Source of the DNA: an uncultured archaeon
GTDB lineage: Archaea > Asgardarchaeota > Thorarchaeia > Thorarchaeales > Thorarchaeaceae
Reading direction: 5' to 3'
Assembly (NCBI GenBank): GCA_964354495.1
Contig: CAYHAA010000009.1
Span: forward strand, 60,001 to 92,000
DNA length: 32,000 bases
Positions 7,467 to 25,007 of this stretch are shown in pieces (the first letter of the stretch is position 1; each line of letters opens with the position of its first letter). Position numbers and translations under genes: made by a program. Below the pieces are notes generated by a model. The model was not told the DNA's origin. It worked only from the letters and a program-made list of their open reading frames with translations, and did no database searches.

Positions 7467-8990
7467 CTATAATGTGGCAAAGACATGGGGTATCCGTTCA
7501 ATGCAGTCAGTGGCAACTATGTGGTCGCCAAGGTCACCCGCAGCCATCTCTCCAGCAAGACCAGACACAAAGGCACTCGCAGCTGCTGCTTTGAAGGCTC
7601 CGCCGTTTCGAGATAGAAAGGAGGCAACGATGCCCGTCAGAACATCCCCAGTACCCCCGACTGTCATTGCAGGAACGCCAGTTCGATTCCACTTGATGCG
7701 GCCAGTAGGATGCGCAATCACATCTATTGGCCCTTTCAGTAATATCACTGCATCGTATTGCTTGGCCGCCTTGATTGCTTGTTCTGTCCGATTCTGCAAG
7801 TTCCCAGCTTTTCCCAATTTGCTCCCCATGATGACTGAGAGCTCACCCCAGTGTGGAGTGAATACAGTGATATCCGGGTTGAATTTCATTCCCGATGAAG
7901 CTATTGCTTTCAATCCGTCAGCATCAAGGACAAGTGGTATCGCACGATTTATGAACTGCTGAATGAGTGATACAGCAGCCGCTTTTGTTTTGGAATCAAG
8001 TCCAAGTCCGGGTCCGAATGCAATGACATCATTATTCTCCGAGACCTTGAGAACGGCATCAACGACTTCAGGGATTAGAATCTGAGCGCCCAGATTTTTG
8101 ACCATCAAATTAGGGCTATATTCCCTGATTGCTGGGACGACAGGATCAGGTGCCAAGACAGTGACTAGGTCCGAACCGGAACGTAGTGCAGCCATCCCTG
8201 CAAGCGCAGGAGCGCCTGTGAAGACATCACTTCCGCCAATGACCAGTATCCTGCCAGAGTCGCCTTTCTTTGCGGCAGATTTTCGGGGCTGACTGTAGTA
8301 AGATAGGTCACCGGGTCCACAGATGTCTGCAGCCTCTCGCGGTATTCCGATTGTGACAACGTGTGTCTTTCCCACATATGCATGTGCCTTGAGAGTTCCA
8401 ATCTTGGGTGCATGGAGCACAATGGTATGGTCTGCTCTGACTGCATCTCCTTGAACTGCGCCCGTGTCAGAATCTATGCCACTCGGAACGTCGATTGAAT
8501 ACTTGACTGCTTTCGACCTGTTTATCATCCTTACCGCAGTGAGCAAAGGCTCTCTGAGTTCAGAATGAAGACCGAATCCCATCAGTCCATCAATGAGTAT
8601 GTCAGCACGACCAATGGCTCTGCATGATTTGACAGCAGATTCTGTTAGGAGTGAGGACGTAAAGATTCGCAAGAGGTTCTTGAGAGTGTTCCAGTTTGTC
8701 ATTGTATCAGGATTCGAGATAGTCTTCTCGTGTCCTAGCAGATAGACCTCAACTCTTGCACCAGCTTCATCTAGATACCTTGAAGCGACAATACCATCTC
8801 CGCCATTTCCGCCGAGGCCGCACAGGACAACGATGGATTTTCCTTCGACATTCTCATTATCAATGATTACGCGAGCAACCTCTCTGCCAGCAATTTGCAT
8901 GAGAACGCTGTGTGAGACACCAAGGTATTTTGCATTCATCTCAAGAGCGCGCATCTCATCCGTTGTTATGGAATTCACGTCCATCTGCAA
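7467..8990 (-). CDS. nnr: Bifunctional NAD(P)H-hydrate epimerase/dehydratase (YjeF; NnrE-NnrD)
   Basis: CGLGGNGGDG, SIDVPSG, KGDSGRILVIGGS, GPGLG, DADGL, TPHWGEL, GGTGDVLTG. Start TTG 8990 or ATG 8984. Confidence 0.95.
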   Translation of the reverse strand: MQMDVNSITTDEMRALEMNAKYLGVSHSVLMQIAGREVARVIIDNENVEGKSIVVLCGLGGNGGDGIVASRYLDEAGARVEVYLLGHEKTISNPDTMTNWNTLKNLLRIFTSSLLTESAVKSCRAIGRADILIDGLMGFGLHSELREPLLTAVRMINRSKAVKYSIDVPSGIDSDTGAVQGDAVRADHTIVLHAPKIGTLKAHAYVGKTHVVTIGIPREAADICGPGDLSYYSQPRKSAAKKGDSGRILVIGGSDVFTGAPALAGMAALRSGSDLVTVLAPDPVVPAIREYSPNLMVKNLGAQILIPEVVDAVLKVSENNDVIAFGPGLGLDSKTKAAAVSLIQQFINRAIPLVLDADGLKAIASSGMKFNPDITVFTPHWGELSVIMGSKLGKAGNLQNRTEQAIKAAKQYDAVILLKGPIDVIAHPTGRIKWNRTGVPAMTVGGTGDVLTGIVASFLSRNGGAFKAAAASAFVSGLAGEMAAGDLGDHIVATDCIERIPHVFATL

Positions 8991-9187: not shown

Positions 9188-10627
9188 TTACTTGGTCCTC
9201 TTTTTCGAAAGAAAAGCATGAATACCTCGTGCGGCACATTTGCCTTGGCCCATTGCGTTAATGACTGTAGCAGCCCCGGTCACAATGTCACCACCAGCAA
9301 AGACACCAGGGAGCGAAGTCATACCTGTTTCTTCATTGATGACGATAGTTCCCCATTTGGAGACCTCAAGTCCAAGCGTTGAGTTGGGGATAATTGGATT
9401 GGGCGAATTGCCAATCGCAACAATGACAGTATCAAGATCCATAACGAGCTCAGAATTCTTGATGGCTACAGGTCGCTTTCTACCGGACTCATCTGGTTCT
9501 CCGAGCTCCATGCGAATACATTGCATCCCGATGACGTTCCCAGACTCATCACCCAGGACTTCAGTGGGATTCACAAGGAATTGAAAACGAATACCCTCCT
9601 CCTCTGCGTGATGTACTTCTTCTGCTCTGGCGGGCAGTTCTTCGCGTGATCTTCTATAGACGATTGTTACCTCGCTAGCACCCAGCCTCAGGCTTGTCCT
9701 TGCTGCATCCATCGCTACATTTCCTCCACCAATGACTGCAACCCTCTTCCCTATCTTCACAGGTGTGTCATATTCAGGGAACTTGTAGGCTTTCATGAGA
9801 TTGACGCGTGTAAGGAACTCGTTCGCTGAGAAGACTGTGGTCAAGTTCATCCCCTTGATTGGCATGAAGTTGGGCGCGCCTGCGCCGCTTCCGATGAAGA
9901 CGGCCTCATAGCCATCCTCTTTCATTAGCTCATTGACAGTTCTTATTTTGCCAATCACATGATTATACTTGATTTCAACCCCGAGTCTCTCGAGGAAATC
10001 CACCTCTGCAGTGACAATTTCCTTGGGCAATCTGAACTCAGGAATTCCATAGATGAGGACTCCACCAGGTTTGTGGAATGCCTCAAAGATAGTGACATCA
10101 TAGCCCAGTTTTATGAGATCACCAGCACAGGTCAATCCTGCTGGTCCTGAACCGATGACTGCAACTCTCTTTCCGAGCTTTGCTGGCAACTTGGGGATGT
10201 CCTCACCCTTCGCCCGAGCATAGTCAGCAGCAAACCTCTCTAACCGCCCAATTGCAATAGGTTCGTTTCGGACACCGTAGATACAGGAAGCTTCACATTG
10301 CGTCTCCTGGGGACAGACACGACCACAGATTGCTGGGAGACTGTTTGTTTCCTTGATCTTAGCCGCTGCCTCTATGAACTTCTTCTCACGAACGAGATTT
10401 ATGAACTCCCGAATGGGGACTTCGACTGGGCAACCACTTATACACTTAGGATTTCGGCACTGCATGCACTTCTCAGCCTCTGCTAGTGCTTGCTCCATCG
10501 TATAACCAAGAGCGACCTCGTCAAAATTCCGCCTGCGCTTCGTTGGGGACTGCTCGGGCATCATGACTTTCTTAGTCGGTGGTTTTCGCTCCCTCTTGGC
10601 ATCTTTTGGCTCGTTCTTCTCGCTCAT
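9188..10627 (-). CDS. nfnB: NADH-dependent ferredoxin:NADP+ oxidoreductase large subunit (NfnB/SudA, GltD-like)
   Basis: CMQCRNPKCISGCP and CGRVCPQETQCEASC Fe-S motifs, GSGPAG and GGGNVAMD Rossmann motifs, FAGGDIVTG; GGAGGTGA SD; ATGA overlap with nfnA. Confidence 0.9.
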   Translation of the reverse strand: MSEKNEPKDAKRERKPPTKKVMMPEQSPTKRRRNFDEVALGYTMEQALAEAEKCMQCRNPKCISGCPVEVPIREFINLVREKKFIEAAAKIKETNSLPAICGRVCPQETQCEASCIYGVRNEPIAIGRLERFAADYARAKGEDIPKLPAKLGKRVAVIGSGPAGLTCAGDLIKLGYDVTIFEAFHKPGGVLIYGIPEFRLPKEIVTAEVDFLERLGVEIKYNHVIGKIRTVNELMKEDGYEAVFIGSGAGAPNFMPIKGMNLTTVFSANEFLTRVNLMKAYKFPEYDTPVKIGKRVAVIGGGNVAMDAARTSLRLGASEVTIVYRRSREELPARAEEVHHAEEEGIRFQFLVNPTEVLGDESGNVIGMQCIRMELGEPDESGRKRPVAIKNSELVMDLDTVIVAIGNSPNPIIPNSTLGLEVSKWGTIVINEETGMTSLPGVFAGGDIVTGAATVINAMGQGKCAARGIHAFLSKKRTK

Positions 10628-11469
10628 TGAGTTTCACCTCCATGCTGATCTGCCCATCTCTTGTCGGACTCTGCCTCATATGTGCGATAGGCATTGAGTC
10701 GACCCATGAGTTCCTGAAAATCCACCTTGTGCCCGTCAAACTCGGGACCATCGACGCATGCGAACTTCATCTGACCATCCACGCTCACGCGACACGCACC
10801 GCACATCCCGGTGCCATCAACCATAATGCTGTTCAGACTCACGAGAGTGGGTATCTTCTTGGCCTCGGTTGTCTTGCTCACGAATTTCATCATCGGGACA
10901 GGCCCAACAGCAAACACAAGGTCGATCTTTCGATCATTCTGAATGAGCTCTCCAAGAACGTTTGTAACAAATCCATGAACTCCACACGTGCCATCATCTG
11001 TGGTAACGTAGAACTCATCACTTATTTCGCGCATCTGTTTTCTATAGAGAAGCAGTTCCATAGTCCGCGCACCATTGATAGTAATCAGGTAGTTACCAGC
11101 TTCTTTGAATGCTCGAGCAACAGGATATACAATGGCGCTTCCACAGCCGCCTCCGATTGCAACAACAGTACCATACTTCTTGTCAGTAGCCGAGGGCTTC
11201 CCAAGGGGTCCGACAAAATCCTGAATATACTCTCCTCTCTTGAGACTTCCGAGAAGCTTCGTGCTCTTGCCAACTTCTTGGAATACGATCGTGATAAGAC
11301 CTCTCTCACGATTGAAGTCTGCGATTGTCAGAGGAATGCGTTCACCTGTCTCGTTCGCCCGAACCATCACAAACTGGCCTGGCTTGCACACCTTGGCAAT
11401 CTCAGGAGCGCGAACGACCAACATCTTTGTGACAGGATTAAGAACCTTCTTGGATACAATCTTGTACAT
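10624..11469 (-). CDS. nfnA: NADH-dependent ferredoxin:NADP+ oxidoreductase small subunit (NfnA/SudB, PyrK-like)
   Basis: PGQFVMV, ERIPLTIAD, GPLG, DGTGMCGACRV...CVDGPEF [2Fe-2S] motif. Start re-set to ATG 11469 (MYKIVSKK) with GAGGT SD; the ORF-track extension to 11607 overlaps the upstream gene. Confidence 0.9.
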   Translation of the reverse strand: MYKIVSKKVLNPVTKMLVVRAPEIAKVCKPGQFVMVRANETGERIPLTIADFNRERGLITIVFQEVGKSTKLLGSLKRGEYIQDFVGPLGKPSATDKKYGTVVAIGGGCGSAIVYPVARAFKEAGNYLITINGARTMELLLYRKQMREISDEFYVTTDDGTCGVHGFVTNVLGELIQNDRKIDLVFAVGPVPMMKFVSKTTEAKKIPTLVSLNSIMVDGTGMCGACRVSVDGQMKFACVDGPEFDGHKVDFQELMGRLNAYRTYEAESDKRWADQHGGETQ

Positions 11470-11569
11470 GATTGGATAACCTCGAGGAGCCCCTCGAAAC
11501 AAAGGCGGGGGCAAGTCGTCAGCGCTCCGGATGGTATGATAAGAGTTTGGGTAGCACGATTCCATGAAA

Positions 11570-13306
11570 CTACTCGCGATACGCTTTGCGTACTTCTTTG
11601 ACAACAAGGCCGGGCAGCTCTTTCACAGACCTGATAGGATAGACTGATGCACCAGCTCTCTCCAGGGCCTGATGAGTCTTGGAGGCTCGAGAGCTAGTTC
11701 CAGAGCCTATATGGAAAAGAAACAGCTTGTGGCCCCTCTTGGAAAGTGACTCAACAGCTCCCACCATCTGTTTCCAGTTCGACACCTCAGCATCGGTTAT
11801 GAGAAGAACAATGGATTCTTTCTCCGCGCTTCCGCACACTTCGCTTATCTTGCTTACAGGCGCAACAGTGCCTCCGCCTTGGTAGGCTAGTAGGACTCTT
11901 TCGACTGGAGCTCTCTCTCTTGTCCATTCGCATACTTGCACACCGTCAGAGAAGTTGATTGCAGCCACTCTGCAGCCTCGCCGAAATGCGAAGTCCATCG
12001 CAGCAAAAGCCGAAACAAGCGCAGTATGGTAGTCGCCAGAGATCGTGGTGGGACGCATTTCCCAAGTCATTGAAGCTGATGAGTCTATGACCATCAACAT
12101 GTCAAGAGTGGTCTTGGAGACTTTGGAGTCAGTTGTCACATAGAGTTGCCATTTTCTTGTTGAACGATTCGGAATGAGTACAGGGAATGCCTGAAGAGAC
12201 TGGACAATATCGAGCTCTTCCAAAGGGTCACCTAGCCTCCAGACCTCAGGCACCAATGGAACTGCCCCGGTCAATCTGGAGGAGTCTACTTCAAATCGAA
12301 TCGCTCCGTATGCTTTTGCACGGTACCAGAAACGAGTCCAGGCGGCCCTCTCCGATCCGACACCAGCTGTCAGGAAGACACCCTGCAAATCCTCAATGTT
12401 TCCGCCCAGCTGTTCGACATCAATAGCAAGCCGCTCCATCTCCTCCTCGAGGTTTGATGAATCGGCTCCCTCCAAGCACTTTCGTGCCAAGTCGCCGTTT
12501 CTGACCTCGACAGGACTTCCCATTATCCCGTCTACATCCAAGGGGACGGCAACGACTTTCCGCGAACCGTCCACTCCCTCTTGTTGAACTTCATTTGAAG
12601 CTCCTGAATAGGCACCAAGCAAGCTTTCGTCATCGGGCATCCACTTACATAGTATCTCTGCGACCTTTTCGCAAGAAGAAGGCCACCGATGCTCAAGTTC
12701 GACTGATGCGCGTGCAATGCGCACTATCTCAATCGCCGCCTCGAAAGTGCGCTGTTCTACATCGATCGTCGGAGGAATTGGAAACCCCCACATGACCCTA
12801 TAGCAAGAAACAATCAGTTTCCAGACGTCACTGTGCTCCTGAGTCCTCATCGCGGAATCATGAATGGAAGAAATGATGCGACTATGGGTGAGAGTCAGAA
12901 ATCTTCTCAACAGACTCGAGTCCACGACAAAGTCCGCAAAGAGATTACAGACAAACATAGCTGCGGCATCATTGACATGCTTCCGTGCAGCTGCAAACAT
13001 TCTCCCATTCATCACGCTGTCATACGGACACAGAAGATAGTGCTGAATCTCGTGGTGGCAGATGGACCTAAGAAAAGAATCGACCTCTTCGATACTCATG
13101 TGCAGAGGTACTCCAGCTAGATTAAGATGCACAGTCCAGCTGCTAGAGTCGATGTAGAAGAAACTGGAAACTCCAGGAATGTACTCAATCTCAGGCTCTG
13201 GAAGTGGAGGATGATAGAAGTCAGAAACAGCTAGAGCCCATGCTCTGGCCGCTGCAGAGCTGTACCCATTCTCGTCAGAAGACTTGCTAGCTGTCACATC
13301 CATCAT
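11570..13306 (-). CDS. HExxH putative metallopeptidase domain + C-terminal VWA (MIDAS) protein, MoxR partner
   Basis: CHHEIQHYLL (HEIQH at 13040-13054) followed by NLFADFVVD; MIDAS parts VIDSSAS, GGGT and ITDAE. Confidence 0.8.
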   Translation of the reverse strand: MMDVTASKSSDENGYSSAAARAWALAVSDFYHPPLPEPEIEYIPGVSSFFYIDSSSWTVHLNLAGVPLHMSIEEVDSFLRSICHHEIQHYLLCPYDSVMNGRMFAAARKHVNDAAAMFVCNLFADFVVDSSLLRRFLTLTHSRIISSIHDSAMRTQEHSDVWKLIVSCYRVMWGFPIPPTIDVEQRTFEAAIEIVRIARASVELEHRWPSSCEKVAEILCKWMPDDESLLGAYSGASNEVQQEGVDGSRKVVAVPLDVDGIMGSPVEVRNGDLARKCLEGADSSNLEEEMERLAIDVEQLGGNIEDLQGVFLTAGVGSERAAWTRFWYRAKAYGAIRFEVDSSRLTGAVPLVPEVWRLGDPLEELDIVQSLQAFPVLIPNRSTRKWQLYVTTDSKVSKTTLDMLMVIDSSASMTWEMRPTTISGDYHTALVSAFAAMDFAFRRGCRVAAINFSDGVQVCEWTRERAPVERVLLAYQGGGTVAPVSKISEVCGSAEKESIVLLITDAEVSNWKQMVGAVESLSKRGHKLFLFHIGSGTSSRASKTHQALERAGASVYPIRSVKELPGLVVKEVRKAYRE

Positions 13307-13315
13307 TATAGCATC

Positions 13316-15025
13316 CTAAGATTCGATATGTTTCTGAAGTTCATCCTTGAGTCTGACTGCCTCAGTCCCGCCAGATATCTCCAAGAAGACTGCAGACTCA
13401 GGAGAGTCGCCTGTGACGTAGATCACAAGGGTCAGACCATCTATTCTGAGAGCTTTTCTCTTTGGAGGAGTCAGCGTTTCCTTTAGCATTGGAGTGAGTT
13501 TTGGATACTTCAGTCCGATGGTTGTCCAGAGCTCTTGCCACTGCTCGAACGTCAACTCAAACTGGGTGAGTGTCAATCTGTGGAGCGCATCGGAAACTTG
13601 CTTCAAGAGCACGCTTCTATTTGGAAAGTCGGTATTGTACATGAGTTCATCATGTGTCTTCGTAAGCTGTTCAATATCTCGATCCTTAATCCCACGTTCT
13701 ATTCTCTGCACTGTGATCACATATCGGGGTTTCTTGAGCTCTTTGGCGAACTCTGAGTAATCGAGTTGTACAAGCAGATCGCTCTTGGCCATCTCCTTGA
13801 GTTGTTCGAATGACTCCTTTGACTCACTCCCATGCTTCAATCGCGCTATGATCTCAATGGCAGGAGCTCTCTGAGCATAACGAGAAGTCGCCAGCTCAAC
13901 AAGATGTTGAGTGAAGGCATAGAGGTCACCATAATAGGGAGACCGCTCGGACTCATCTCTCACAAACTTTGTTCTATGCCAGAAGACAAGCGGAGCCAAG
14001 GACTTGACAATCTCTATGCTCACTTCATGAGACCCAACAAGCCAAGCAGTGGCTTTTGAATAACGATTCAGGTCCTTTGCTGCCCGAACGCTGAGAGGCA
14101 CAATCACCTTGTTACAGACACTCTTTGCAGTATTGAAATGGCATCCATCACAGAGGCCAGTGGCGACAGTTATGCCCGATGACTGGCTCTTGTCTACTCT
14201 AATACATGCTCCGAACTCACGCACCAGAGACCGCATGTATTCGGAAGCCTCTGGTGACACAGGTATCTTGTCCGCGAGATTCCAAATTGTAAGGAGGTTC
14301 TCTTCTGTCAAGATCGCAGGTACTTGCCAGAGTTCATCAAAACCGAATAGGCGTTCATCACGAGAAGAAAGTATCAGTTCCAAGTCACTCACGGTTGGCA
14401 TGGTAATTGGAACTGCCAAGCCAAATCTGTCTAGAAATGGAGGCCCAATATCGAAGGTTCCAGCATCAGCAGGATTGAGCGTGGCATAGAGGCTGTACTC
14501 ATCGCATCTCTTGACCTCATCATAATACTTGACCTCGCCTTCAGCGAGAAGAGAGAGCAGTATGTTCTGAGAGTGAGGCGTTAAACGATTGACTTCATCG
14601 ATGATCTTCCAGAAACCTGTGATGAACGAGCGCCATACAACGACCTCTAATCCCTCTTTCATGAGAGGGCCAGGACGTAGTGTGGCCACCATCTTTTCTT
14701 CAGTGAGTTGAGGGTGACCTCTGAGAATACCATCCTCAATCTCCTCAAGGCTCTTTCCGGTCATCATCCGACCTAGGATCTTGACCAATGTCGTCTTTCC
14801 ACCACCGTGGCCACCAATGAGCAGCATTGCAGAACGGGGCACTAGCGCATTGAGGACACATGAACCTACTATCAAGGGGATTCGTGTGGTCTGTGTCTTG
14901 TCCTTCGCTCCAGTGGTGGTGTACTTAATCTCCAAATCCGTAGAGTGCACAAAGAGACCTCTGCTCTCTACTGTAGTAATAACGCTTCTAACCAGTTCTT
15001 GAAGTTTCGATGATGGAGAGCTCAT
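13316..15025 (-). CDS. MoxR-family AAA+ ATPase with long C-terminal extension
   Basis: Walker A GGHGGGKTT, Walker B IIDEVNR, QNILLSLLAEG, ATLNP, PFLDRF; 9 bp upstream of the VWA gene. Confidence 0.85.
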   Translation of the reverse strand: MSSPSSKLQELVRSVITTVESRGLFVHSTDLEIKYTTTGAKDKTQTTRIPLIVGSCVLNALVPRSAMLLIGGHGGGKTTLVKILGRMMTGKSLEEIEDGILRGHPQLTEEKMVATLRPGPLMKEGLEVVVWRSFITGFWKIIDEVNRLTPHSQNILLSLLAEGEVKYYDEVKRCDEYSLYATLNPADAGTFDIGPPFLDRFGLAVPITMPTVSDLELILSSRDERLFGFDELWQVPAILTEENLLTIWNLADKIPVSPEASEYMRSLVREFGACIRVDKSQSSGITVATGLCDGCHFNTAKSVCNKVIVPLSVRAAKDLNRYSKATAWLVGSHEVSIEIVKSLAPLVFWHRTKFVRDESERSPYYGDLYAFTQHLVELATSRYAQRAPAIEIIARLKHGSESKESFEQLKEMAKSDLLVQLDYSEFAKELKKPRYVITVQRIERGIKDRDIEQLTKTHDELMYNTDFPNRSVLLKQVSDALHRLTLTQFELTFEQWQELWTTIGLKYPKLTPMLKETLTPPKRKALRIDGLTLVIYVTGDSPESAVFLEISGGTEAVRLKDELQKHIES

Positions 15026-15254
15026 AGCATCACAAGCTACGGTACACTGAGTGTATAGTGCTTATGAACATCGCCAACGGGGCGCGAATTGAAAAGCTGC
15101 AATAGCTCTGTCAGCAGGAAGAACCCCTCGGACCGTCATTATTAGCCGGATTCTGAAACGGTCATTATTTGTGAAAGGCGCCCAAATGTACCTCCTCCGA
15201 AGACGTAATATGGGTTCATGAGAAAACCATGGGACCAAAAAGCGGGGTTGCAGA

Positions 15255-16325
15255 TTGGGCGAAGAAAGAACGTATGCAGAAGCAATCACTCTGATAGAAC
15301 CAGAGAAACAACCTACAGAACGGTTGAGTCAATACTCAGTGGTAACCAGAGCGATGGAATATCACACGCTGATGAATCGCTATGGTGATCTGAAGAGGGA
15401 CCTGGTTGATGCAGGATTGCGATTTGGCGGCCGAGTTCTTCTGATCGGATCCCCGGGAACAGATTTCGAAGCTTTTGCGCATTACCTGAGTCGGGAAGTG
15501 CCACTCAAACTAGTGCGATTCAGGATGGACATTTTACTGAATGAGGTCAAAAGTGGAGCTGAGATACTGAGAGTCGGATTCGAGTTCGCAAGGAGGAATT
15601 CTCCGACTGCCATGTATGTGGAGAAATTGGAGTCTGTTTCGCCGGCCAGCAGCGAACGCTCAGCAGTCCTTCAGGATGAGCTGAGCCGAACAGGATGGGA
15701 TGGGGAAGAAGTCTTGGTCATCGCATCCACGACAAGGCCGCAGGATGTTGACACTGATGTCCTTTCTACATTCGATAGGGTCTTTGTCATAGAGGGAACA
15801 ACACTTGAAGATCGAGTACGAGTGTTTGAGCAGACATTGAAAGGCCACGAGAATATCGACCCAACCGTGGTAGCGGAGTTGACTGATGGCTGGGGGTACT
15901 CCAGCACGAAACAACTTGCTGTGAGCCTTTTCATGACCGAGACCGAAGAAGGTGGTCAGATTCCCAGAAACAAGATCGAGGAGATGATAGAGAAGAGTGG
16001 CGTCATGCCGCTCAACAACCCCAGATACCTTGAATCAGTCATACGGCGCACTGGAGGAGCAACGAAACACAAGATAGAGAGTCTGCGTACTGAGTATCCT
16101 GATGACTTCCTAGATCAGCTCTACCTCATGGCGGCGGGAGAAGACTATTCAGCAACTCAGAGAGCCATAGAGGTCTTGAATGATGGAATGCCGTTGTCCA
16201 AGGAGGACCGCGAGGTACTCTCCAGATACCCGTTCCTTCTGAATGGAACGCCAGAAGACAGACTGACAAGGCTACTGAGAGCAAAGAAGAGCAATGACAG
16301 ACTTCAGAGGATCATGGGACGTTAA
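15255..16325 (+). CDS. Degenerate classic-clade AAA+ domain protein (predicted pseudo-ATPase)
   Basis: VLLIGSPGTDFE (Walker A position), AMYVEKLE (Walker B position), VIASTTRPQDVD...FDR (SRH position), AELTDGW (lid). TTG start with GGGGT upstream; start uncertain. Confidence 0.7.
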   Translation: MGEERTYAEAITLIEPEKQPTERLSQYSVVTRAMEYHTLMNRYGDLKRDLVDAGLRFGGRVLLIGSPGTDFEAFAHYLSREVPLKLVRFRMDILLNEVKSGAEILRVGFEFARRNSPTAMYVEKLESVSPASSERSAVLQDELSRTGWDGEEVLVIASTTRPQDVDTDVLSTFDRVFVIEGTTLEDRVRVFEQTLKGHENIDPTVVAELTDGWGYSSTKQLAVSLFMTETEEGGQIPRNKIEEMIEKSGVMPLNNPRYLESVIRRTGGATKHKIESLRTEYPDDFLDQLYLMAAGEDYSATQRAIEVLNDGMPLSKEDREVLSRYPFLLNGTPEDRLTRLLRAKKSNDRLQRIMGR

Positions 16326-16340
16326 TCAGGGGACCGGGAT

Positions 16341-19300
16341 TTGGGTAATATCAGAGCCTACATTGAATCGGCAAAGTTGGACAACTTCCTCTCATTCTAC
16401 TCAGGAAGAGTCGTCTTCGACAGAGGACTGACTGTCCTAGCTGGGCCAAATGGATCAGGCAAGACATCCGTCTTCCATGCTCTGAAGTTCGCATTGGGCT
16501 CAAATCAACGAGAGAATAGATACAGTAAATGGAGCGATTTCATCAGACATGGTGCAAGTACTGCACAAGTCGAAGTCATTGTCAAGATTGATGGTCAAGA
16601 CAGGAAGTTCCAACGGAAGATTGACCGTGATGGTATCCCTAGAGCATACGTAAATGGTCGAAGAGTCAAGGCCGCTGAGCTTAGGCAGATAGTTCAGTCA
16701 TTCGGACTGGATACGGACAATCCTCTAGTCTTCATCCCTCAGGAGAGAATCAACGCAGTACGAGATATGGATCCGTACGAAGTGAGAAAGCTAGTTGAAG
16801 AGGGAACTGGTCTTGATGTCCTTCGAGACAGGATAATCCTTCAAGAGACTGAGGTCGTTCAGAGTCGACAACGACTGACAGCAGCTCTTGCAGAATCGAA
16901 GTCAGTAGAGAGAGAGCTTGAACTGCTTCAACATGACCTCACCCGTCTTGAAAAGAAGAGGGCCCTCCAAGAACAGGAGAAGGCTCTCGAAAAAGACCTG
17001 TTGTGGGCATCTCTCGATGACTTGACTGAGAAGATCGATTCTATCAAGACGGAGATTGACGGGAAGGAGGAAGGTCTCGTATCGATACTTGACGAACAGA
17101 CACTTGTTCAATCAGAGGTCGCTAGCAATGAACAAGAGACTGAAAGCGTTGAAGCAAAGCTCTCGAATCTGCAGATTGAAACCGGCCGCATCGATGCCAA
17201 GATCGAAGAAGAGGAACGTAATCTGGCGCGTATCGAGGGAGATTCTCAGAGACAGGTAAGTGAACTCAAGCAACTTGAGAAGGAAATCAAAACAGAAACG
17301 AGAAACAAGGAAAAACTCCAAGAAGATATCGAACGCATTACATCCACCAAAGAAGACACCATGGAGAAGCAGCGTCAACTCCGTACGTCACTTCAAACCA
17401 TAGAGGATGAACGAAATCACCTCAGAGATGAATTGGAGGCCTTTGCTGACTGGAACACCAAGAGAGCAGAATCCCATGGAAGATACAAAGCCCTTCAAGC
17501 GGAGATTGAAGGGAAAGACCTACTCCTGCGAAGCGTGAGAGAGAGACTGCAAGTAGAGGAAGCAGAGCTTCAGTCGATAGAGAGCAAGTGGTCACATACA
17601 TGGTCTGCAATGGAAAAATCCGATGAGAAGGAGCTGGCAAAGAAGAAAGGCCAGCTAGAGAGAGAGATTGCTTCTCTGAATGAAGAACGATTCCGGCAGA
17701 GCAGTATAGTATCCCAACTCCAGAAGGATATTGATGAGCTCAATGTGCGACTCTCCGAAACATCCAAACGTATTCCTGATACAGTCAAGAAACTGAAGGA
17801 TGCAATTGCAGAGCACAAATTGGCGACCGTCACAGGCCCGCTTATCGAGCTCTTCACCGCGGATGACTCCATAGCCTGTGCAGTTGAGGCTGTGCTGCCT
17901 GATAATATGACACTAGCCTTCATAGTCACTGATGAATCAGACTTTCAGATACTTCAGAAGCTCAGAGACAATGCTGAGGCGCCATCCCCACTGATTCTGC
18001 TGAAGCCTTCAGGAGATCCGGGTGAACGCCCAGCACTGAAGACCGAAGCTGGTGTAGAAGGATGGCTCTGGGATAGGCTCAACATCGACGATGAAACCAA
18101 GAAGCTTCTGCGAAGAGCTATCGGAGACTTCGTGCTCACAAAGAATGTTCGATCTGCAACGCGTCTTGCAACAAAGGAGGGACTCAGGGGGGTCTCCGTG
18201 GACGGGCATGTCATTATTCCAGAGGCTGACAAGATTGTAAGCAATCCAAAGATTCTGCCATCAGGAATGGTCTCTACTGCTCCCCTCCAGTCGCGTCTCT
18301 CCAGTGCAGACAAAGAATTGTTTCTAGCCAAAAAGCGAGTCACCGACACCATGATGGCCTTGGATGAACTCACAAATCAAAGAGAGGAAGTACTGGATCT
18401 GCTGAGTCAGATGACCCGATGGAGTGGAACCTGGGAGCGACGAAGAAGCCTGCTTGAAACTATCCCTGTACAGGAAGAGAGAATTGCCGCGCTCGATGAA
18501 GAACTGAAGGGGCTTCAAGCAGAGCTGGGTAAATCAGAGAGGGAACTCAGAAAACTCGACAACACCCAGCCTCCTGAACGAAGTAGACTGATTGGGCAAG
18601 ACTCAGCTCTTCGTATTAAGCACCGACAACTCCAGGCAGACCTCACAAGAGTGGACGCTCGAGCGAACGCAGCTGAACGGGATGAAGAGATCAAGCGTCA
18701 GGAGCTGAAGAGGATTGTTGAGAATGTCACCATGCTGACAAACAGCCTCGACGAGTTGCGTGCGGAGATCCTAGAATCAAAGGGTGTTGCCTCAAAAATC
18801 CTTCAGAAGATAGAAGTTCTGAGGGCAAGCCAAGAAGAGGCCAGGAACCAGAATGGCGGGCTTGCTGAGGAAATGGGACGACTCAAGGAGACCAATCGCT
18901 CTCTAAGGGCCAGAATTGTGGAACTCAACCTTGTCATCAAGGAACAAAAGATACAGGTCCTTCAGGCCAAGCGACAATTAACGAACATGGAGTATGATCT
19001 CGAGAACCTCGAGCGGGACCTTGATGGACAAGAGAGACCAGATGTAGTGAAACCCCTAGAACAGGTAAGGAATGAACTTGTGAAGCTTCGCCACGTCCTG
19101 GATGATTATCAAGATGTATCCGAGAGTGTGGCGCACACTGAAACTCAACTGAAGGGACGGCTGACTACCCTCGTTGAGAGAGTGACAGAGCTGCAAGAGG
19201 AATTGGAAGAAGCGGAGTCTACTGTCAAGGATATACGAGAGCAGTATCATAATGGAATGAATGAGACCTTGCGCAATGTTGAGAAGAATGTGAATGAAGT

Positions 19301-19718
19301 TCTAGGAAGTGTTCAATTCCCTGGAAGTGTTCGTTTCGAACTTGCGCTCAGAGAGGGAGATTATGGTGTGGAGTTCAAATCAAGAATCAAAGCAGAAGGC
19401 TTTGGTGATGTCAGTGCGGGGTCTGGCGGCGAGCGATCTCTCATCGCCATCTCGTTGATTCTAGCCCTTCAAAGGTATAATCCTGCGCCAGTCTATGTAT
19501 TGGATGAGGTTGACACATTCCTCGATGCTACGAACACTGAACTTGTGAGCAGACTTTTCCATGATGCGTCCCGCAGAAGTCAATTCATCCTTCTAACGCC
19601 CGCCAAAAGCACTCACCTTCTGAAGCACGCTGACAAGATACTGGGCATCGTTTCACCCAATGGCGTAGAACCATCTGTAATAATCGAGAGCCCGAAGTTC
19701 AAGGGACAACAGGAGTGA
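16341..19718 (+). CDS. smc: SMC-family ATPase, SMC5/6-like
   Basis: GPNGSGKT, Q-loop region DNPLVFIPQE, two long coiled coils around a hinge (GPLIELF...AVEAVLP...AFIV), SGGERS, VLDEVD, QFILLTP; 1125 aa. Confidence 0.93.
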   Translation: MGNIRAYIESAKLDNFLSFYSGRVVFDRGLTVLAGPNGSGKTSVFHALKFALGSNQRENRYSKWSDFIRHGASTAQVEVIVKIDGQDRKFQRKIDRDGIPRAYVNGRRVKAAELRQIVQSFGLDTDNPLVFIPQERINAVRDMDPYEVRKLVEEGTGLDVLRDRIILQETEVVQSRQRLTAALAESKSVERELELLQHDLTRLEKKRALQEQEKALEKDLLWASLDDLTEKIDSIKTEIDGKEEGLVSILDEQTLVQSEVASNEQETESVEAKLSNLQIETGRIDAKIEEEERNLARIEGDSQRQVSELKQLEKEIKTETRNKEKLQEDIERITSTKEDTMEKQRQLRTSLQTIEDERNHLRDELEAFADWNTKRAESHGRYKALQAEIEGKDLLLRSVRERLQVEEAELQSIESKWSHTWSAMEKSDEKELAKKKGQLEREIASLNEERFRQSSIVSQLQKDIDELNVRLSETSKRIPDTVKKLKDAIAEHKLATVTGPLIELFTADDSIACAVEAVLPDNMTLAFIVTDESDFQILQKLRDNAEAPSPLILLKPSGDPGERPALKTEAGVEGWLWDRLNIDDETKKLLRRAIGDFVLTKNVRSATRLATKEGLRGVSVDGHVIIPEADKIVSNPKILPSGMVSTAPLQSRLSSADKELFLAKKRVTDTMMALDELTNQREEVLDLLSQMTRWSGTWERRRSLLETIPVQEERIAALDEELKGLQAELGKSERELRKLDNTQPPERSRLIGQDSALRIKHRQLQADLTRVDARANAAERDEEIKRQELKRIVENVTMLTNSLDELRAEILESKGVASKILQKIEVLRASQEEARNQNGGLAEEMGRLKETNRSLRARIVELNLVIKEQKIQVLQAKRQLTNMEYDLENLERDLDGQERPDVVKPLEQVRNELVKLRHVLDDYQDVSESVAHTETQLKGRLTTLVERVTELQEELEEAESTVKDIREQYHNGMNETLRNVEKNVNEVLGSVQFPGSVRFELALREGDYGVEFKSRIKAEGFGDVSAGSGGERSLIAISLILALQRYNPAPVYVLDEVDTFLDATNTELVSRLFHDASRRSQFILLTPAKSTHLLKHADKILGIVSPNGVEPSVIIESPKFKGQQE

Positions 19719-20374
19719 GAGTGACGAAAGAGAAGAGCCTTGCAGCAAGAGTCTACGAGATAGTACAGGCGGCTCGTTCTGGAGAGATTGATCCACTTGA
19801 ACTGCGATTGACAGACTCATACAGAGAACTGAAGGAACTGGCAGCAAGGATTGACTGTAGGCTTGACATCGATGAGATGTTGAATGAGGTTCTCGGGGCG
19901 AAGGTAAACCGTGTTCAGGAACTGGCGAGAGTTCTTGCTTCTCCAGAGATCTACGTTGCTCGTTTGAAGGAGAAATCAATGAGGGAAATTGCCAGACTCT
20001 TGGTGCAGAGGCAGCCAGTTGTTATAGGTCATCTTGAGCGATCCTCACTCAACGAGTCTCTTGACAGAATTGTTCAGTTCATAGATGCAATGACTCGTGA
20101 GGCACCTCAAGACCTGGTGCCAAAGATGAGCGGACTTCCGAATGGTTTCACTCTTGAAACTGAAGATACTGTCTTCATGGAAGACCTTGAGAAGTTCCTT
20201 ACAAGAATTCCTCAAGATGGAAAGGCCATCTTTGACGATATCATCGAGAGTGCTGAGCTTGATATCTTTCTCAAGCATTTCCTCTATGTCATAATCCTTG
20301 TATCCCAAGGACGTTTATTGTATAATCCTGCCACACGACAATTACAGAGGCCACTTTTTCCCGAGGCAACATAG
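19715..20374 (+). CDS. scpA: Kleisin (ScpA/Nse4-like)
   Basis: N-term EIVQAARSGEIDPLELRLTDSY resembles ScpA (LxxLxRxGEIDPWDIDI); C-term FDDII...FLYVIILVSQGRL fits the kleisin C-terminal wHTH; GTGA overlap with the smc stop. Confidence 0.75.
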   Translation: MRVTKEKSLAARVYEIVQAARSGEIDPLELRLTDSYRELKELAARIDCRLDIDEMLNEVLGAKVNRVQELARVLASPEIYVARLKEKSMREIARLLVQRQPVVIGHLERSSLNESLDRIVQFIDAMTREAPQDLVPKMSGLPNGFTLETEDTVFMEDLEKFLTRIPQDGKAIFDDIIESAELDIFLKHFLYVIILVSQGRLLYNPATRQLQRPLFPEAT

Positions 20375-20454
20375 AAACAATGGCAATCAATAGCTGCAGG
20401 GAACAGGTGCTCATTCTTAGGGAGGACCAATGCAGAGGCGGTGTGTTTCGACAT

Positions 20455-21804
20455 TCACGCAGACACCTCAAGAAGAAGCTCGCTGGGTGCTTCAAGGGAA
20501 TGGTTGTTTCCATCTGCAAGTCGGGAGTGCAACTTCAGTTTGGCAATAGCTGCAAAGCCCAGAAGTGAAACGACCACTAAGACAACAGACGCGCCAATGA
20601 AGGGAGGACCTGTCGAACCAGCAGTTTCAGCCCATACTCCGCCAATTGCCATTCCCATTACTTGTACAGCCGTAAATACGACATTAAAAAGAGAAAAGAC
20701 ACGACCGCGGAACCTATCTTCTACGAGCGTCTGCATCAATACACTGAGAGGTATGTTCAGAATCACATCAACTGCACCGATCATCGCCCAAGCAAGCAGT
20801 ACGCTCAAGAAATCAAACGCTATGACCAGTGCGAAGACACCAATGCCAGCTAGAAGACCAGCAAACGCAATGAGATACAATGGTCTCTCGATTTTGCTCT
20901 TGCGGCTTAGATAGACAGCCGCTGTAGCCCCTGTGGCAGCGCCAGCACTGAGTATCAATCCTATCTGAGCAGGTCCAAGCCCCAATGCGCCTTCGAAATA
21001 TGGCATCAGGAGTGCATTGAGTATTCCAGAGGAACCTGCGAGTAGCACTGCAAACACAAACAGGAATGAGAGAACTGCATTTCCTATGACATAGCGGCCG
21101 CCCTGAACTATCTGGTCCCGTAGTGATTCGTGCTCTACATACTTTCTCCGTGGGCTGAGATCAGTCGATATTCCGCGGAGAGCAATGGCTGATAGAATGA
21201 AGGTCATCGACGTGATGGCAAAGGCAAGGAAATAGTCGGGAGCAAGGAGCGCAATCAGGATACCTCCGAGAGGAGGAACGACTAGCTGAACAACCTGGAA
21301 AGTCATCTGAGATAGAGAGGATGCTGCGACTAGTTCGTCGCCTTCCACCAGATTGGGAATAGATGCGCTCCTTGCTGGAAAGAACCATGCATTTGCAGTT
21401 GCATGGATAAGCGTCAAGAGATACACCCAATAGATGGGGGGAATGAACGATGGAAAATGGATTGTTACAGGTATCAGTATAATTGCAGCAGCTCGAATAA
21501 TATCTGATGCAATCATGATTCTCTTGCGATTCCAACGATCAACATATACACCAATGAAGCCAGCAAACACGACAACAGGCAACACTTCAACCATGGCGAG
21601 TACTGCCATTGCCATGGTAGAACCTGTTAGGTCATAGGCATAGAACAGAAGGGCAAGGGCAGATATTGCAGTGCCAATATTCGATACAAGTTGTCCTAGC
21701 CAGAGGCGTGAGTAATCAGGATGGCGTAGAGCGGCCCCAAAGCCACTCGGCCGTAGTTCATCTGCAGCACCCTCAGGTTGCTGGTCAATCAACGATTCTA
21801 CCAT
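20455..21804 (-). CDS. MFS transporter (drug:H+ antiporter / macrolide-efflux-like)
   Basis: LWLGQLVSNIG, motif A GVYVDRWNRKRIMIASD, QTLVEDRFRGRVFS, about 12 hydrophobic segments; GAGGTG SD. Confidence 0.92.
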   Translation of the reverse strand: MVESLIDQQPEGAADELRPSGFGAALRHPDYSRLWLGQLVSNIGTAISALALLFYAYDLTGSTMAMAVLAMVEVLPVVVFAGFIGVYVDRWNRKRIMIASDIIRAAAIILIPVTIHFPSFIPPIYWVYLLTLIHATANAWFFPARSASIPNLVEGDELVAASSLSQMTFQVVQLVVPPLGGILIALLAPDYFLAFAITSMTFILSAIALRGISTDLSPRRKYVEHESLRDQIVQGGRYVIGNAVLSFLFVFAVLLAGSSGILNALLMPYFEGALGLGPAQIGLILSAGAATGATAAVYLSRKSKIERPLYLIAFAGLLAGIGVFALVIAFDFLSVLLAWAMIGAVDVILNIPLSVLMQTLVEDRFRGRVFSLFNVVFTAVQVMGMAIGGVWAETAGSTGPPFIGASVVLVVVSLLGFAAIAKLKLHSRLADGNNHSLEAPSELLLEVSA

Positions 21805-22422: not shown

Positions 22423-22926
22423 ATGAACGAGTATGCAGTGCTTGTTAAGCTCCTCACACGAACAGGAACACCCATTGGTGCAAGCATAGATGACATGCTC
22501 GATGCACTCGGTCTCCCTGAGGATGCCGGGAGGCATGTTCTATTCCAAAAGCTGAGTAACCTTCATGAGAGGGTCAGACCACTGGGTCTTGTTATCAAGC
22601 ACAATCCAGTATCAGGAGTCTTCTATCTTGACACCTTCAGCGAGGTTACGCTTCCTCAAGATGGTACCACACTGCCAGATAGGCTTGCGGCAACTCTTCT
22701 TATTGTAATGACACTGGCCTACCAAGATGGTGGCTGGGTGAATGTCGAGAGAGTCAGAGAGTTCAGGAAGAAGGCGCTGCAGGGTGTGATGGTCGATCTT
22801 CGAGAACTGCAGAGTCAGGGCTATGTTGATTTGGATCAGGACAAGAAGCGAGTACGCCTTGGAACAAAAGTGCCATTCGAGATCGACTACGAGGCATTCT
22901 TCAAAAACCTAGCAGAGAGTCAATAA
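22423..22926 (+). CDS. Kite-family tandem winged-helix protein (ScpB/Nse1/Nse3/MksB-like)
   Basis: 167 aa with two wHTH-like halves. LHERVRPLGLVIKHNPVSGVFYL fits the WH-A wing; LAATLLIVMTLAYQDG...LRELQSQGYV fits ScpB WH-B (ETLAIIAY...L...GLI). Lies 2 kb from smc-kleisin on the same strand. Confidence 0.65.
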   Translation: MNEYAVLVKLLTRTGTPIGASIDDMLDALGLPEDAGRHVLFQKLSNLHERVRPLGLVIKHNPVSGVFYLDTFSEVTLPQDGTTLPDRLAATLLIVMTLAYQDGGWVNVERVREFRKKALQGVMVDLRELQSQGYVDLDQDKKRVRLGTKVPFEIDYEAFFKNLAESQ

Positions 22927-22997: not shown

Positions 22998-23357
22998 ATG
23001 TCCCACAGACGTTCTCTTCGATTTTCACAGTCTACCTGCCCAGTCTGTGGAGGCAAGGAAGTGGCCCGCGATGACCTCAAGGGAGACCTTCTTTGCACTA
23101 ACTGCGGACATATCGTGACCCGTACCGAATCGAGAAGTGTTGGTAAGTTCGATATCGCTCAACACCTCAAGCGAAACGGGAAGATGACCTTCCCGAGCTT
23201 GATTGAAGTCACTGGAGCCTCTGATGACAAGCTCTTTGGTGTGCTCCAAGGCATGGAGAGCATGGAACTCGTTGAACAGATAACAGGACAATACACTCTC
23301 ACAAAGAAAGGACAGAGATGGTACCGTCAAAGACTGGGACAGGAGTGGGGATACTAA
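22998..23357 (+). CDS. TFIIB-type Zn ribbon + winged-helix protein
   Basis: CPVCGG...KGDLLCTNCGHIV matches the TFIIB Zn-ribbon pattern; the C-half ends in LVEQITGQYTLTKKG, a typical wHTH wing. Confidence 0.75.
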   Translation: MSHRRSLRFSQSTCPVCGGKEVARDDLKGDLLCTNCGHIVTRTESRSVGKFDIAQHLKRNGKMTFPSLIEVTGASDDKLFGVLQGMESMELVEQITGQYTLTKKGQRWYRQRLGQEWGY

Positions 23358-23816: not shown

Positions 23817-25007
23817 TCACAGCGACTTCTTTGTGATAATCAGGTCTTTGCCATCTATCTTCACTGGCATCGCCGGAGGCAGATCCAATAGCCAATCCTC
23901 GAGCTCCTCAGGTGTCTTAAAGCGAAGTAGTATACCCAGTCTATCAAGGGGTAATGTCTCATACCGAGTCATGATCTTCTTCATCTGGAACATGCGGAAT
24001 GCTTCAAGTTCAGCCAGCGCTTCTTCAGCAAGCTCCTTTGACTTGTCAAACCAAGGGCTCTCTTTCTCAAACTCCCAGATTTCTACAAGTCCTTCCACTG
24101 AGCCTGTTATGACGTATCTACCATCCGGTGTGACAACCATGGAATGGACATTATCCGTATGGGTCAAATCAGCAACGAGAACACCGCCGCGTAGGACCCA
24201 GACACGCACCGTTCCATCAGACGAACCGGTGATTACGTGCTGGCCATCAGTCGTTATGTGGATTGTGAGAATGGGCGCATGATGACCTGTCATCGTCTTA
24301 AGCAGAGTACCTGTTTCGAGGTCCCAGAGGTACACGATACCATCCTGATCGCCTGAGAGAATGTATCGAGAATCAGCAGTCATAACCAGAGCAGTCACAT
24401 GACCCTGATGTCCCTCAAGGAGTCTGAGTAGAACACCAAGTTCAAAGTCCCAAATCCAGACAGCGCCAACATCTCTTGTGCCAGGTGTCCGTTTGCTTCC
24501 AGAGATCAAATATCGCCCATCAGGACTCACCATCAATGAGTAAATCCCACGTCCATGGTCAGAACTACGCAGCATGACTCCTCTGTCTATATCCCAGTAC
24601 CTTGCAACACCGTCATCCCCACCAGTGACGATGAATCGCTGATCTGGGCTGACAGCGATTGCTGTGACATGAGCAGAGTTGGGTGCAAGAGACCGGATCA
24701 ACTCATGCGTTTCGAGGTCCCAAATCTTGACAGCGAGGTCCTTGTCGGCAATCGAAACAAGACGCTTACCATCTGGCATAACAACAAGCCTGTAGACGGG
24801 CCCATTATGACCGAGGAACTTATGGAGCTCCTTTCCTGATGCAAAGTCCCACAGGCGTATTGTGGTGTCTTGACCGCCCGAAACGATGACTCGACCATCT
24901 GGTGTGATTGCCAAGCTCCAGACAGTGAATTCGTGCCCTTCCATTTGACCACTTGGTGTCATCTCGTTGACCAAATTCGGGCATCTCCTCATTCCAGTTG
25001 TTGGCAA
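23817..25007 (-). CDS. Seven-bladed WD40 protein with C-terminal small helical/wHTH (PCI-like) domain
   Basis: Seven repeats countable (GHEFT..LWD, GHNGP..IWD, PNSAH..YWD, DHGRG..IWD, GHQGH..LWD, GHHAP..VWV, THTDN..IWE). True start probably 5-15 codons downstream of 25007. Confidence 0.88.
   Translation of the reverse strand: MPTTGMRRCPNLVNEMTPSGQMEGHEFTVWSLAITPDGRVIVSGGQDTTIRLWDFASGKELHKFLGHNGPVYRLVVMPDGKRLVSIADKDLAVKIWDLETHELIRSLAPNSAHVTAIAVSPDQRFIVTGGDDGVARYWDIDRGVMLRSSDHGRGIYSLMVSPDGRYLISGSKRTPGTRDVGAVWIWDFELGVLLRLLEGHQGHVTALVMTADSRYILSGDQDGIVYLWDLETGTLLKTMTGHHAPILTIHITTDGQHVITGSSDGTVRVWVLRGGVLVADLTHTDNVHSMVVTPDGRYVITGSVEGLVEIWEFEKESPWFDKSKELAEEALAELEAFRMFQMKKIMTRYETLPLDRLGILLRFKTPEELEDWLLDLPPAMPVKIDGKDLIITKKSL

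Follow-up and report, generated by a model that had tools for sequence, protein, structure and literature searches.

The locus described here raises the question of whether two groups of genes that start back-to-back in an Asgard archaeal genome belong to one system or are only neighbours. It lies in a stretch of 32,000 nt, here referred to as the window, from an uncultured archaeon (Asgardarchaeota; Thorarchaeia; Thorarchaeales; Thorarchaeaceae; assembly GCA_964354495.1, contig CAYHAA010000009.1, positions 60,001 to 92,000 of the forward strand), and coordinates of its features are positions within the window. One group is a MoxR/VWA pair, in which the gene for a MoxR-type AAA+ ATPase is followed by one for a protein with an N-terminal HExxH motif and a C-terminal VWA domain carrying a metal-ion-dependent adhesion site (MIDAS). 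The other is an operon that begins with a dead AAA protein, a predicted pseudo-ATPase denoted here by X, and continues with a second, non-canonical SMC, a probable kleisin and a kite-like winged-helix protein (kite). The original prediction described two divergent operons with 229 bp between their starts, and the coordinates of the open reading frames (ORFs) agree with it. The span that it gave for the SMC operon rightly held X, the SMC and the kleisin-like gene, but its end at 20374 was too early, since the kite gene lies beyond the locus of interest (11570–20374; Table 1). We propose, with a probability of about 0.5, that the MoxR/VWA pair is the dedicated accessory remodeller of the SMC ring and that the six genes are one functional unit. 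That MoxR/VWA and X-SMC-kleisin-kite share a functional link of some kind is rather probable.

We surveyed 301 genomes of the phylum (Asgard archaea) from 30 families. Families, genera, genomes and loci are labelled f, g, G and L, with f1 being the family of the window genome and f2 a second family of the same order. In the genus of the window, MoxR and X were both present in 16 of 18 genomes and were adjacent and divergent in all 16, the remaining two genomes carrying neither. The same divergent arrangement, with X, SMC, kleisin and kite on the strand opposite to VWA and MoxR, was found at 15 of 15 loci from 14 other f1 genera, two of which reach contig ends, and at the only f2 locus, where a gene for a CGGC-domain protein lies between the two starts. 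In f7 (3/3 loci, one on a contig of Candidatus Jordarchaeales) and f8 (1/1 locus), the genes form one co-directional operon in the order MoxR-VWA-X-SMC-kleisin-kite, with reading frames that abut or overlap by a few bases. As f1 and f2 together, f7 and f8 represent three different classes of the phylum, the arrangement extends beyond the genus and, as an operon, beyond the class, which was the conservation across Asgard genomes that had been suggested as a check. No other neighbouring genes were common to the f1, f2, f7 and f8 loci. The two modules are joined in two different arrangements while their surroundings changed. Because the linkage persists through the family, the order and two other classes, chance adjacency of the modules is unlikely and a functional link is probable; the earlier remark that the adjacency may equally be coincidental fits such conservation poorly.

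Presence and absence within f1 gave a further view of the unit. Twelve f1 genomes matched neither MoxR nor SMC, and five were checked. In three genomes of g17, the NfnB gene and a zinc-ribbon gene, which flank the cluster, lie about 170 bp apart and the six-gene block is absent, while a fourth g17 genome has precisely the six genes of the unit between these two. This insertion or deletion was probably one event, as the genomes are kin, and its borders coincide with those of the six-gene unit. In G127, also among the twelve, the cluster is present and broken by a contig end, and no flank match was found for G010, another f1 genome with neither module matched. In five other discordant f1 genomes, the module that was found is partial or near a contig end. 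The zinc-ribbon gene (22998–23357, + strand in the window) encodes a 119-aa TFIIB-like protein with a weak AAA_assoc_C match and follows the kite gene in f1 and f2. Since it is retained where the six-gene block is absent (L165–L167), we regard it as part of the flank and not as a member.

The other flank allows a different client to be considered. Other MoxR/VWA pairs mature metal enzymes, and the pair might likewise mature the neighbouring NfnAB-like iron-sulphur flavoproteins, as NfnA/NfnB-like genes follow the VWA gene in 22/22 f1 loci and, in the window, the 3′ end of the VWA gene and the first NfnA-like ORF share 38 nt. We consider this highly improbable. No locus outside f1 shows this adjacency, 6 of the 22 f1 loci instead carry a more distant copy of the Nfn pair in inverted orientation, and the g17 genomes retain NfnAB where the six-gene block is missing, which already disfavours such a role.

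The two proteins of the MoxR/VWA pair have the features expected from their names. The 569-aa protein matched the Pfam families AAA_5 (46.2 bits, cut-off 22; E 6e-12) and AAA_lid_2 (23.7 bits, cut-off 22.7; E 4e-5), and both Walker A (GGHGGGKTT) and Walker B (KIIDEV) are intact in the window translation. Orthologues of MoxR were detected in 138 of the 301 genomes and in 8 of the 30 families. The VWA gene is directly downstream of MoxR in the window and in most loci of all eight families. The exceptions are f2, where a gene intervenes, and L039, L118 and L143, where the VWA match is kilobases off; in L122, no VWA match was found inside the fetched flanks of MoxR. The gene between MoxR and VWA at the f2 locus L007 (13396–16890, − strand) encodes a 1164-aa DUF7743 protein and lies on the opposite strand.

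The 578-aa partner was aligned with its orthologues, 42 sequences from seven families. Its motif reads HEIQH, with H85, E86 and H89 kept in at least 90% of the sequences, and P94 and D96 are invariant, as are the MIDAS residues D408, S410, S412, T480 and D505. An AlphaFold2 (AF2) model (predicted local distance difference test, pLDDT, 81) showed a VWA fold in the C-terminal part, for which the best Foldseek match was the NorD VWA domain of NorQD complexes. VIA gave Z 19.0 (root-mean-square deviation 2.3, 163 residues aligned, within 396–578), and the MIDAS domains of Rea1 and MDN1 reached Z about 15. These fold searches were dominated by the VWA domain and barely sampled residues 1–335. For those N-terminal 335 residues, no Pfam family was among the best 25 of the 28 families listed for the 42 members (E ≤ 1), PF13203 was likewise not among these 25, and there was no usable PDB sequence match for the domain. 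Of the 42 members, 2 were matched by PF09967 (E 0.013), and a weak atlas lead (0.86) pointed to a DUF2201_N cluster. In the model, the HExxH motif sits within a helix that follows a small sheet. The conserved motif, this placement and the DUF2201_N lead weakly suggest a peptidase, and we use that label as a putative one. With this restriction on protease activity, the pair was described rightly from the outset, the MoxR motifs being intact, the VWA fold and MIDAS complete and the HExxH conserved.

X was recognised by Pfam AAA (E 1.4e-7), and its family profile matched Cdc48/p97 (E 1e-40), aligning to both Cdc48 AAA domains. Aligned to Cdc48, X has GTDF in place of GTGK, IEKLE in place of IDEID and LS..LFD in place of RFGRFD, so that the Arg fingers are gone; none of the 28 X sequences aligned keeps the P-loop Lys, the Walker B Asp-Glu or the Arg fingers, in line with the dead AAA+ gene ahead of the SMC that had been noted earlier. 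The AF2 model (pLDDT 85.5) has a classical AAA fold, with FtsH, PAN, p97 and Vps4 as the best folds. From its residues and its modelled fold, X is thus best described as a predicted pseudo-ATPase with an AAA fold. Conservation among the 28 sequences is highest in a helical C-terminal domain, which is about 75 residues long. X precedes the SMC gene at every locus examined, and its TTG start is backed by a conserved GGGG(T) 7–11 nt upstream.

The 1125-aa SMC matched the Pfam families SMC_N (E 1.5e-39) and SMC hinge (E 2.6e-10). Against TIGR02169, the model for canonical SMC, it scored 307 bits (cut-off 729), and the canonical SMC of the same genome scored 846 bits and lies with ScpA and ScpB in an operon on another contig (C3). 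In the tree, the second SMC forms its own clade apart from the canonical SMCs. In pairwise scores of the window SMC, prokaryotic Smc heads ranked above SMC5 and SMC6, and its assignment to an SMC5/6-related class rests on two papers (PMC8665677; 10.1101/2024.01.07.573240). The class was found in 6 families.

The 219-aa protein encoded next is a probable kleisin, judging from its position and size, which are like those of ScpA in the canonical operon, and from distant matches. Its family profile weakly matched the C-terminal winged-helix chains of ScpA (4i99_C, E 0.006; 5xns_C, E 0.021), and the atlas led to Nse4_C-bearing clusters (0.93 and 0.84). None of the 36 members of the family matched a Pfam kleisin family, and hhalign against the ScpA of the same genome gave a probability of 2.9%. 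The kite gene directly follows the kleisin gene in other genera, and the fourth operon gene is homologous in f2, f7 and f9. Its orthologues showed weak winged-helix and DUF4194 matches, and the 167-aa protein of the window had no Pfam match. In the window, kleisin and kite are split by a major facilitator superfamily (MFS) transporter gene, an insertion found at this place only in 7 loci of the same genus. A 157-aa ORF (20441–20914, + strand) overlapping this gene is probably spurious.

Two neighbouring proteins with repeats were also observed. In f24, a HEAT-repeat protein of about 750 aa with Cnd1 matches (L155, 39–2330, E 1.5e-13; L156, 65–2305, E 8.5e-12) is encoded on the strand of the X-SMC operon, 4–6 kb ahead of it and with glycoside hydrolase genes between. 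To our knowledge, Hawk-type proteins have been reported as undetected in prokaryotes, and the Cnd1 match may be a generic HEAT match. In the window, a 396-aa WD40 beta-propeller protein that strongly matches eukaryote-type propeller families (WDR3, E 9e-77) is encoded beyond the zinc-ribbon gene (23817–25007, − strand).

Table 1. Features of the MoxR/VWA and second SMC locus in the 32,000-nt window
Feature	Position	Strand	Basis and remarks
NfnA-like gene (10624–11607) and NfnB-like gene (9188–10627)	9188–11607	−	PyrK-type, GltD-type; 3′ of the VWA gene
Protein with N-terminal HExxH and C-terminal VWA/MIDAS, 578 aa	11570–13306	−	ORF, alignment, model; partner of MoxR
MoxR-type AAA+ ATPase (AAA_5), 569 aa, with C-terminal extension of about 200 aa	13316–15025	−	Pfam, motifs
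Divergent intergenic region, 229 bp	15026–15254	.	ORF starts at 15025 and 15255
Conserved element GGCGCS-N13-YCCGAAGRNRTAATAT(GG)	15177–15213	+	Cross-genus conservation, about 45 nt upstream of the X start
Shine-Dalgarno-like GGGGT before the TTG start	15244–15248	+	Conserved alignment block; probable role
X, predicted Cdc48-like pseudo-ATPase, 356 aa; first gene of the second SMC operon	15255–16325	+	Pfam, profile, model
Second, non-canonical SMC, 1125 aa	16341–19718	+	SMC_N, hinge, TIGR02169 below cut-off
Probable kleisin, 219 aa	19715–20374	+	Operon position, weak profile matches
MFS transporter gene, inserted, outside the system	20455–21804	−	Pfam MFS_1, E 6e-30
Kite-like winged-helix protein, 167 aa; last gene of the SMC operon	22423–22926	+	Homology to the fourth operon gene in f2, f7 and f9

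Since the two operons start so close to each other, it had been suggested that they could share regulatory DNA. The distance between MoxR and X within the genus of the window is 135–294 bp in 9 genomes and about 1220–1280 bp in 7. In L010, the only long-gap locus that was read, a gene for a 328-aa multi-pass membrane protein lies between MoxR and X (7697–8683, + strand); the gap in six further genomes of the genus (about 1.2–1.3 kb) is similar in length. A conserved element was identified upstream of X. Its core occupies the expected position, in the expected orientation, at 19 of 23 f1 loci but at none of 7 loci outside f1. The element is followed by the GGGG(T) block, which resembles a ribosome site and is conserved across genera as well, and, allowing up to 2 mismatches, it occurs only once in the genome. 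In L010, the element remains beside X despite the inserted gene. It had no Rfam match (E ≤ 1) and no consensus RNA fold, and no element of comparable conservation was detected on the MoxR side of the intergenic region. A scan for sigma-70-type promoters, with a model unsuited to archaea, stayed at chance level. The position and conservation of the element suggest that it is probably the promoter or operator of the SMC operon. As the sole cross-genus element stays with the SMC operon and none comparable was found next to MoxR, we regard the two units as adjacent but separately controlled. Given the gene inserted between the starts in L010, the long gaps in 7 of the 16 genomes and an element that is specific to the SMC operon, there is no need to assume shared regulatory DNA.

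We then compared the history of the two modules in a MoxR tree, rooted on f17 and f20, and an SMC tree, rooted on the canonical SMCs. Both trees contain the clades f7 with f8, f1 with f2, and f9 with f24, and both have the same branching order within f9. In the MoxR tree, f1 and f2 are in a well-supported clade with f9 and f24 that leaves the grouping of f1 with f2 itself unsettled, and the SMC tree leaves the order of the three clades open. The unlinked state occurs only in the clade of f9 and f24. These trees fit vertical co-descent of the modules, with one separation in the ancestor of f9 and f24.

The same patterns bear on another possible role for the six genes, namely that of an accessory cassette directed at foreign DNA, in which the SMC would sense or entrap plasmid or viral DNA and the MoxR/VWA/peptidase part would serve as regulator or effector rather than for housekeeping remodelling. 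Extrachromosomal DNA is known to be restricted by SMC5/6 and Wadjet, and vWA-MoxR modules are also found among conflict systems. The patchy distribution (8 of 30 families have the MoxR pair and 6 the SMC class), the clean presence or absence of the whole block inside one genus (g17) and the canonical SMC operon in the same genome, so that this is not the only ring of the cell, all agree with such a cassette. On the other hand, PADLOC returned only generic matches to two of the six proteins (SMC-like mad3 and LmuB, and IetA for the AAA), with none for MoxR, VWA, kleisin or kite and no system-specific model met. No nuclease or other recognised effector was found within the block, and its neighbours are metabolic, not defence, genes. 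Moreover, both trees follow the families, which points to vertical descent and argues against frequent transfer. A defence cassette is therefore an unlikely, though credible, description of the six genes.

The separation in f9 and f24 also bears on a dedicated pairing of remodeller and ring. MoxR-centred loci were collected with flanks of up to 9 kb per side, several being shorter, and covered 50 loci of f9 and 7 of f24. Several results weigh against our reading. The second SMC was within the MoxR flanks in none of the 50 f9 and none of the 7 f24 loci; there it is found on other contigs or, in G222, whose genome is a single contig, 476 kb from MoxR. Among the f9 genomes, 52 have both modules, 1 has MoxR only and 5 have neither, and 10 have the SMC operon with no MoxR match, several of these being 99–100% complete. 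MoxR/VWA is present without this SMC in f17 (5/5 genomes) and f20 (5/7). Within f1 the whole region is syntenic, and both NfnA/NfnB-like genes and Nnr follow the VWA gene in 22/22 loci; the linkage in f1 alone proves little, because the NfnAB and Nnr neighbourhood is kept there too. Congruent trees, finally, are expected for any two vertically inherited genes. The tie between the MoxR pair and this ring thus does not hold in every lineage, and the ring can at times do without the pair.

The SMC operon itself keeps its order after the separation. Among 13 SMC loci of f9 and f24, X is first in 13, a kleisin-like gene is next in 12 and a kite-like gene is found in 11, one locus being truncated and one having no kite match. 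In several f9 loci, a gene for an ArsR-family helix-turn-helix protein was observed upstream of X at varying distance (L009, 9782–10183; L154, L158, L159, L161, L163, L164); it is possibly a regulator of the SMC operon there. In f17 and f20, a protein of 440–480 aa that belongs to no family is encoded directly upstream of MoxR (L047, 10462–11784; L048, 10682–12133). The f17 and f20 proteins are barely alike (E 0.001) and may be a different client or adaptor; the idea that the gene is a diverged X found no support (hhalign probability 0.4%). A junction of the contig ends of G026 (f9), by which MoxR/VWA would be joined to X-SMC, was also rejected, as other f9 loci with a 9-kb flank show no upstream SMC operon.

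A second adjacency was identified in the lineages where the modules are apart. In 6 of the 50 f9 loci (L037, L042, L128, L131, L132 and L150) and 2 of the 7 f24 loci (L053 and L054, from one genus), MoxR/VWA lies tail-to-tail with the canonical SMC-ScpB operon, with ScpB directly after SMC and no ScpA between. The SMCs at these loci scored 828–852 bits, above the canonical cut-off, and the f9 loci are from early-branching genera (g39, 4/4 loci; g59; g69). It is unlikely that a relocated MoxR pair landed beside the other SMC operon by chance, and we take this as modest support for an SMC-related role. The weight of the observation is lessened by the fact that tail-to-tail adjacency need not mean co-transcription and that convergent genes may differ in expression.

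With both kinds of adjacency in view, it may be asked whether the linkage is only inherited history, kept in some lineages and decayed in others, with MoxR/VWA serving another client. The modules are unlinked in 57/57 loci of f9 and f24, each occurs without the other in some genomes, the f1 region shows general block synteny, the gap between MoxR and X is long in 7 of 16 genus members, with an inserted gene read in L010, and the conserved promoter element would serve the SMC operon only. All of this speaks for mere inheritance. Inheritance alone would not readily explain why the linkage persists in three classes while all other neighbours changed, why f7 and f8 have all the genes in one tight operon, why an insertion or deletion removed exactly these six genes, or why the pair became adjacent to the canonical SMC after separation. 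We therefore hold inherited adjacency to be of low probability. As for the expectations of the original prediction, co-occurrence of the MoxR/VWA pair with the SMC gene was borne out in that all six families with this SMC class also hold the pair, and fails in f17 and f20, where MoxR occurs without the SMC, and in ten f9 genomes, where the reverse is true. An arrangement restricted to one genus, with independently distributed modules, had been named as the outcome that would speak against a link; the distribution is partly independent, being unlinked in f9 and f24, and it reaches beyond the genus.

The genes of MoxR/VWA pairs, NorQ-NorD, CbbQ-CbbO and CoxD-CoxE among them, usually stand next to those of the client, and in these systems the MIDAS of the adaptor holds the client while the AAA+ ring supplies the force. 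Since such pairs are usually found beside their target, we infer that the client here would be the X-SMC-kleisin-kite complex. The core in our proposal is the second SMC ring, made of an SMC dimer, kleisin, kite and the Cdc48-derived X, which, by its replaced residues, is predicted to be unable to bind or hydrolyse ATP. A MoxR hexamer and the VWA/MIDAS adaptor would act as a dedicated, ATP-driven accessory of this complex. The MIDAS site would dock on an acidic residue of a ring subunit, the force of MoxR would assemble, open, unload or dismantle the complex, and the conserved HExxH domain may cut one of its subunits. By analogy, opening or cleavage of the kleisin, with X as adaptor or docking site, is possible, as was suggested at the start. 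Perhaps an SMC5/6-type ring, with X as its fourth subunit and docking site, is opened, stripped or cleaved by the MoxR motor together with a MIDAS adaptor that has a zinc protease built in; this bolder version is decidedly unlikely. A complex prediction with the full-length VWA protein and X, both entered as alignments, scored 0.00 (mark 0.32), which is evidence neither way.

Compared with known systems, the pair is like NorQ-NorD, CbbQ-CbbO and RavA-ViaA, of which Rea1/Midasin is a fused form, in combining AAA_5 with a complete-MIDAS VWA beside a candidate client. It differs from them in that an SMC ring takes the place of a metal enzyme or a ribosome precursor as the candidate client, the VWA protein has an N-terminal HExxH and MoxR has a C-terminal extension of about 200 aa. 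DUF2201-type proteins, which join a putative metallopeptidase domain to a VWA-like domain and are MoxR-associated, share with it the HExxH domain ahead of VWA and the adjoining MoxR gene, but a profile match is lacking among the families listed, so that the protein would be a distant relative at best. With separase and Wapl/Pds5 of cohesin it shares only the idea of a protease or release factor devoted to an SMC ring. No caspase-like separase domain and no Wapl repeats were found in the six proteins with Pfam, the sole protease-like motif being HExxH, and, unlike separase, the candidate protease would be a putative zincin driven by a MoxR ATPase. X has the classical AAA fold with a lid, like Cdc48, p97 and VAT, but it is a single-domain protein with replaced catalytic residues and an extra conserved helical C-terminal domain.

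SMC-kleisin-kite operons of archaea have been published as SMC5/6-related (Yoshinaga & Inagaki 2021, PMC8665677; van Hooff et al., bioRxiv 10.1101/2024.01.07.573240). Ours resembles these, as they are described there, in that a second SMC occurs beside the canonical one, with its own genes at the kleisin and kite positions and in an Asgard host; it differs in that the first gene is always that of a dead Cdc48-like AAA and in its link to MoxR/VWA. Neither paper mentions an AAA or MoxR gene in its main text, and the supplements of 10.1101/2024.01.07.573240 may bear on this point. In a search of the literature for MoxR with SMC, von Willebrand, kleisin, archaea and Asgard, the coupling was not described, and the MoxR-SMC matches listed concern McrBC systems. 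Known already are thus the SMC5/6-related operon and MoxR/VWA pairs, each separately. New are the six-gene operon in two other classes, the insertion or deletion of the whole block, the agreement of the two trees, which fits a single separation, a second adjacency, this time to canonical SMC, and the conserved element specific to the SMC operon.

SMC rings organise chromosomes in all life, and how they are loaded, released and destroyed is a central question. In eukaryotes, they are controlled by separase, Wapl, loaders and p97, while we know of no dedicated remodeller or protease for archaeal SMC complexes. The six-gene unit, with an SMC5/6-type ring, a dead Cdc48-like subunit and a MoxR/MIDAS/putative zincin part, is a concrete candidate for the control of SMC in archaea, and it adds X and the MoxR pair, both undescribed in this role, as partners of the SMC, kleisin and kite complex. 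If the link proves false, the locus would still be a clean example of a long-lived gene neighbourhood, and the pseudo-ATPase subunit stands independently of it. The eukaryotic host lineage has its closest known relatives in the Asgard archaea. If the bolder version of our proposal is true, the unit would be a prokaryotic counterpart of the separase, Wapl or p97-type control of SMC rings, in a lineage ancestral to eukaryotes.

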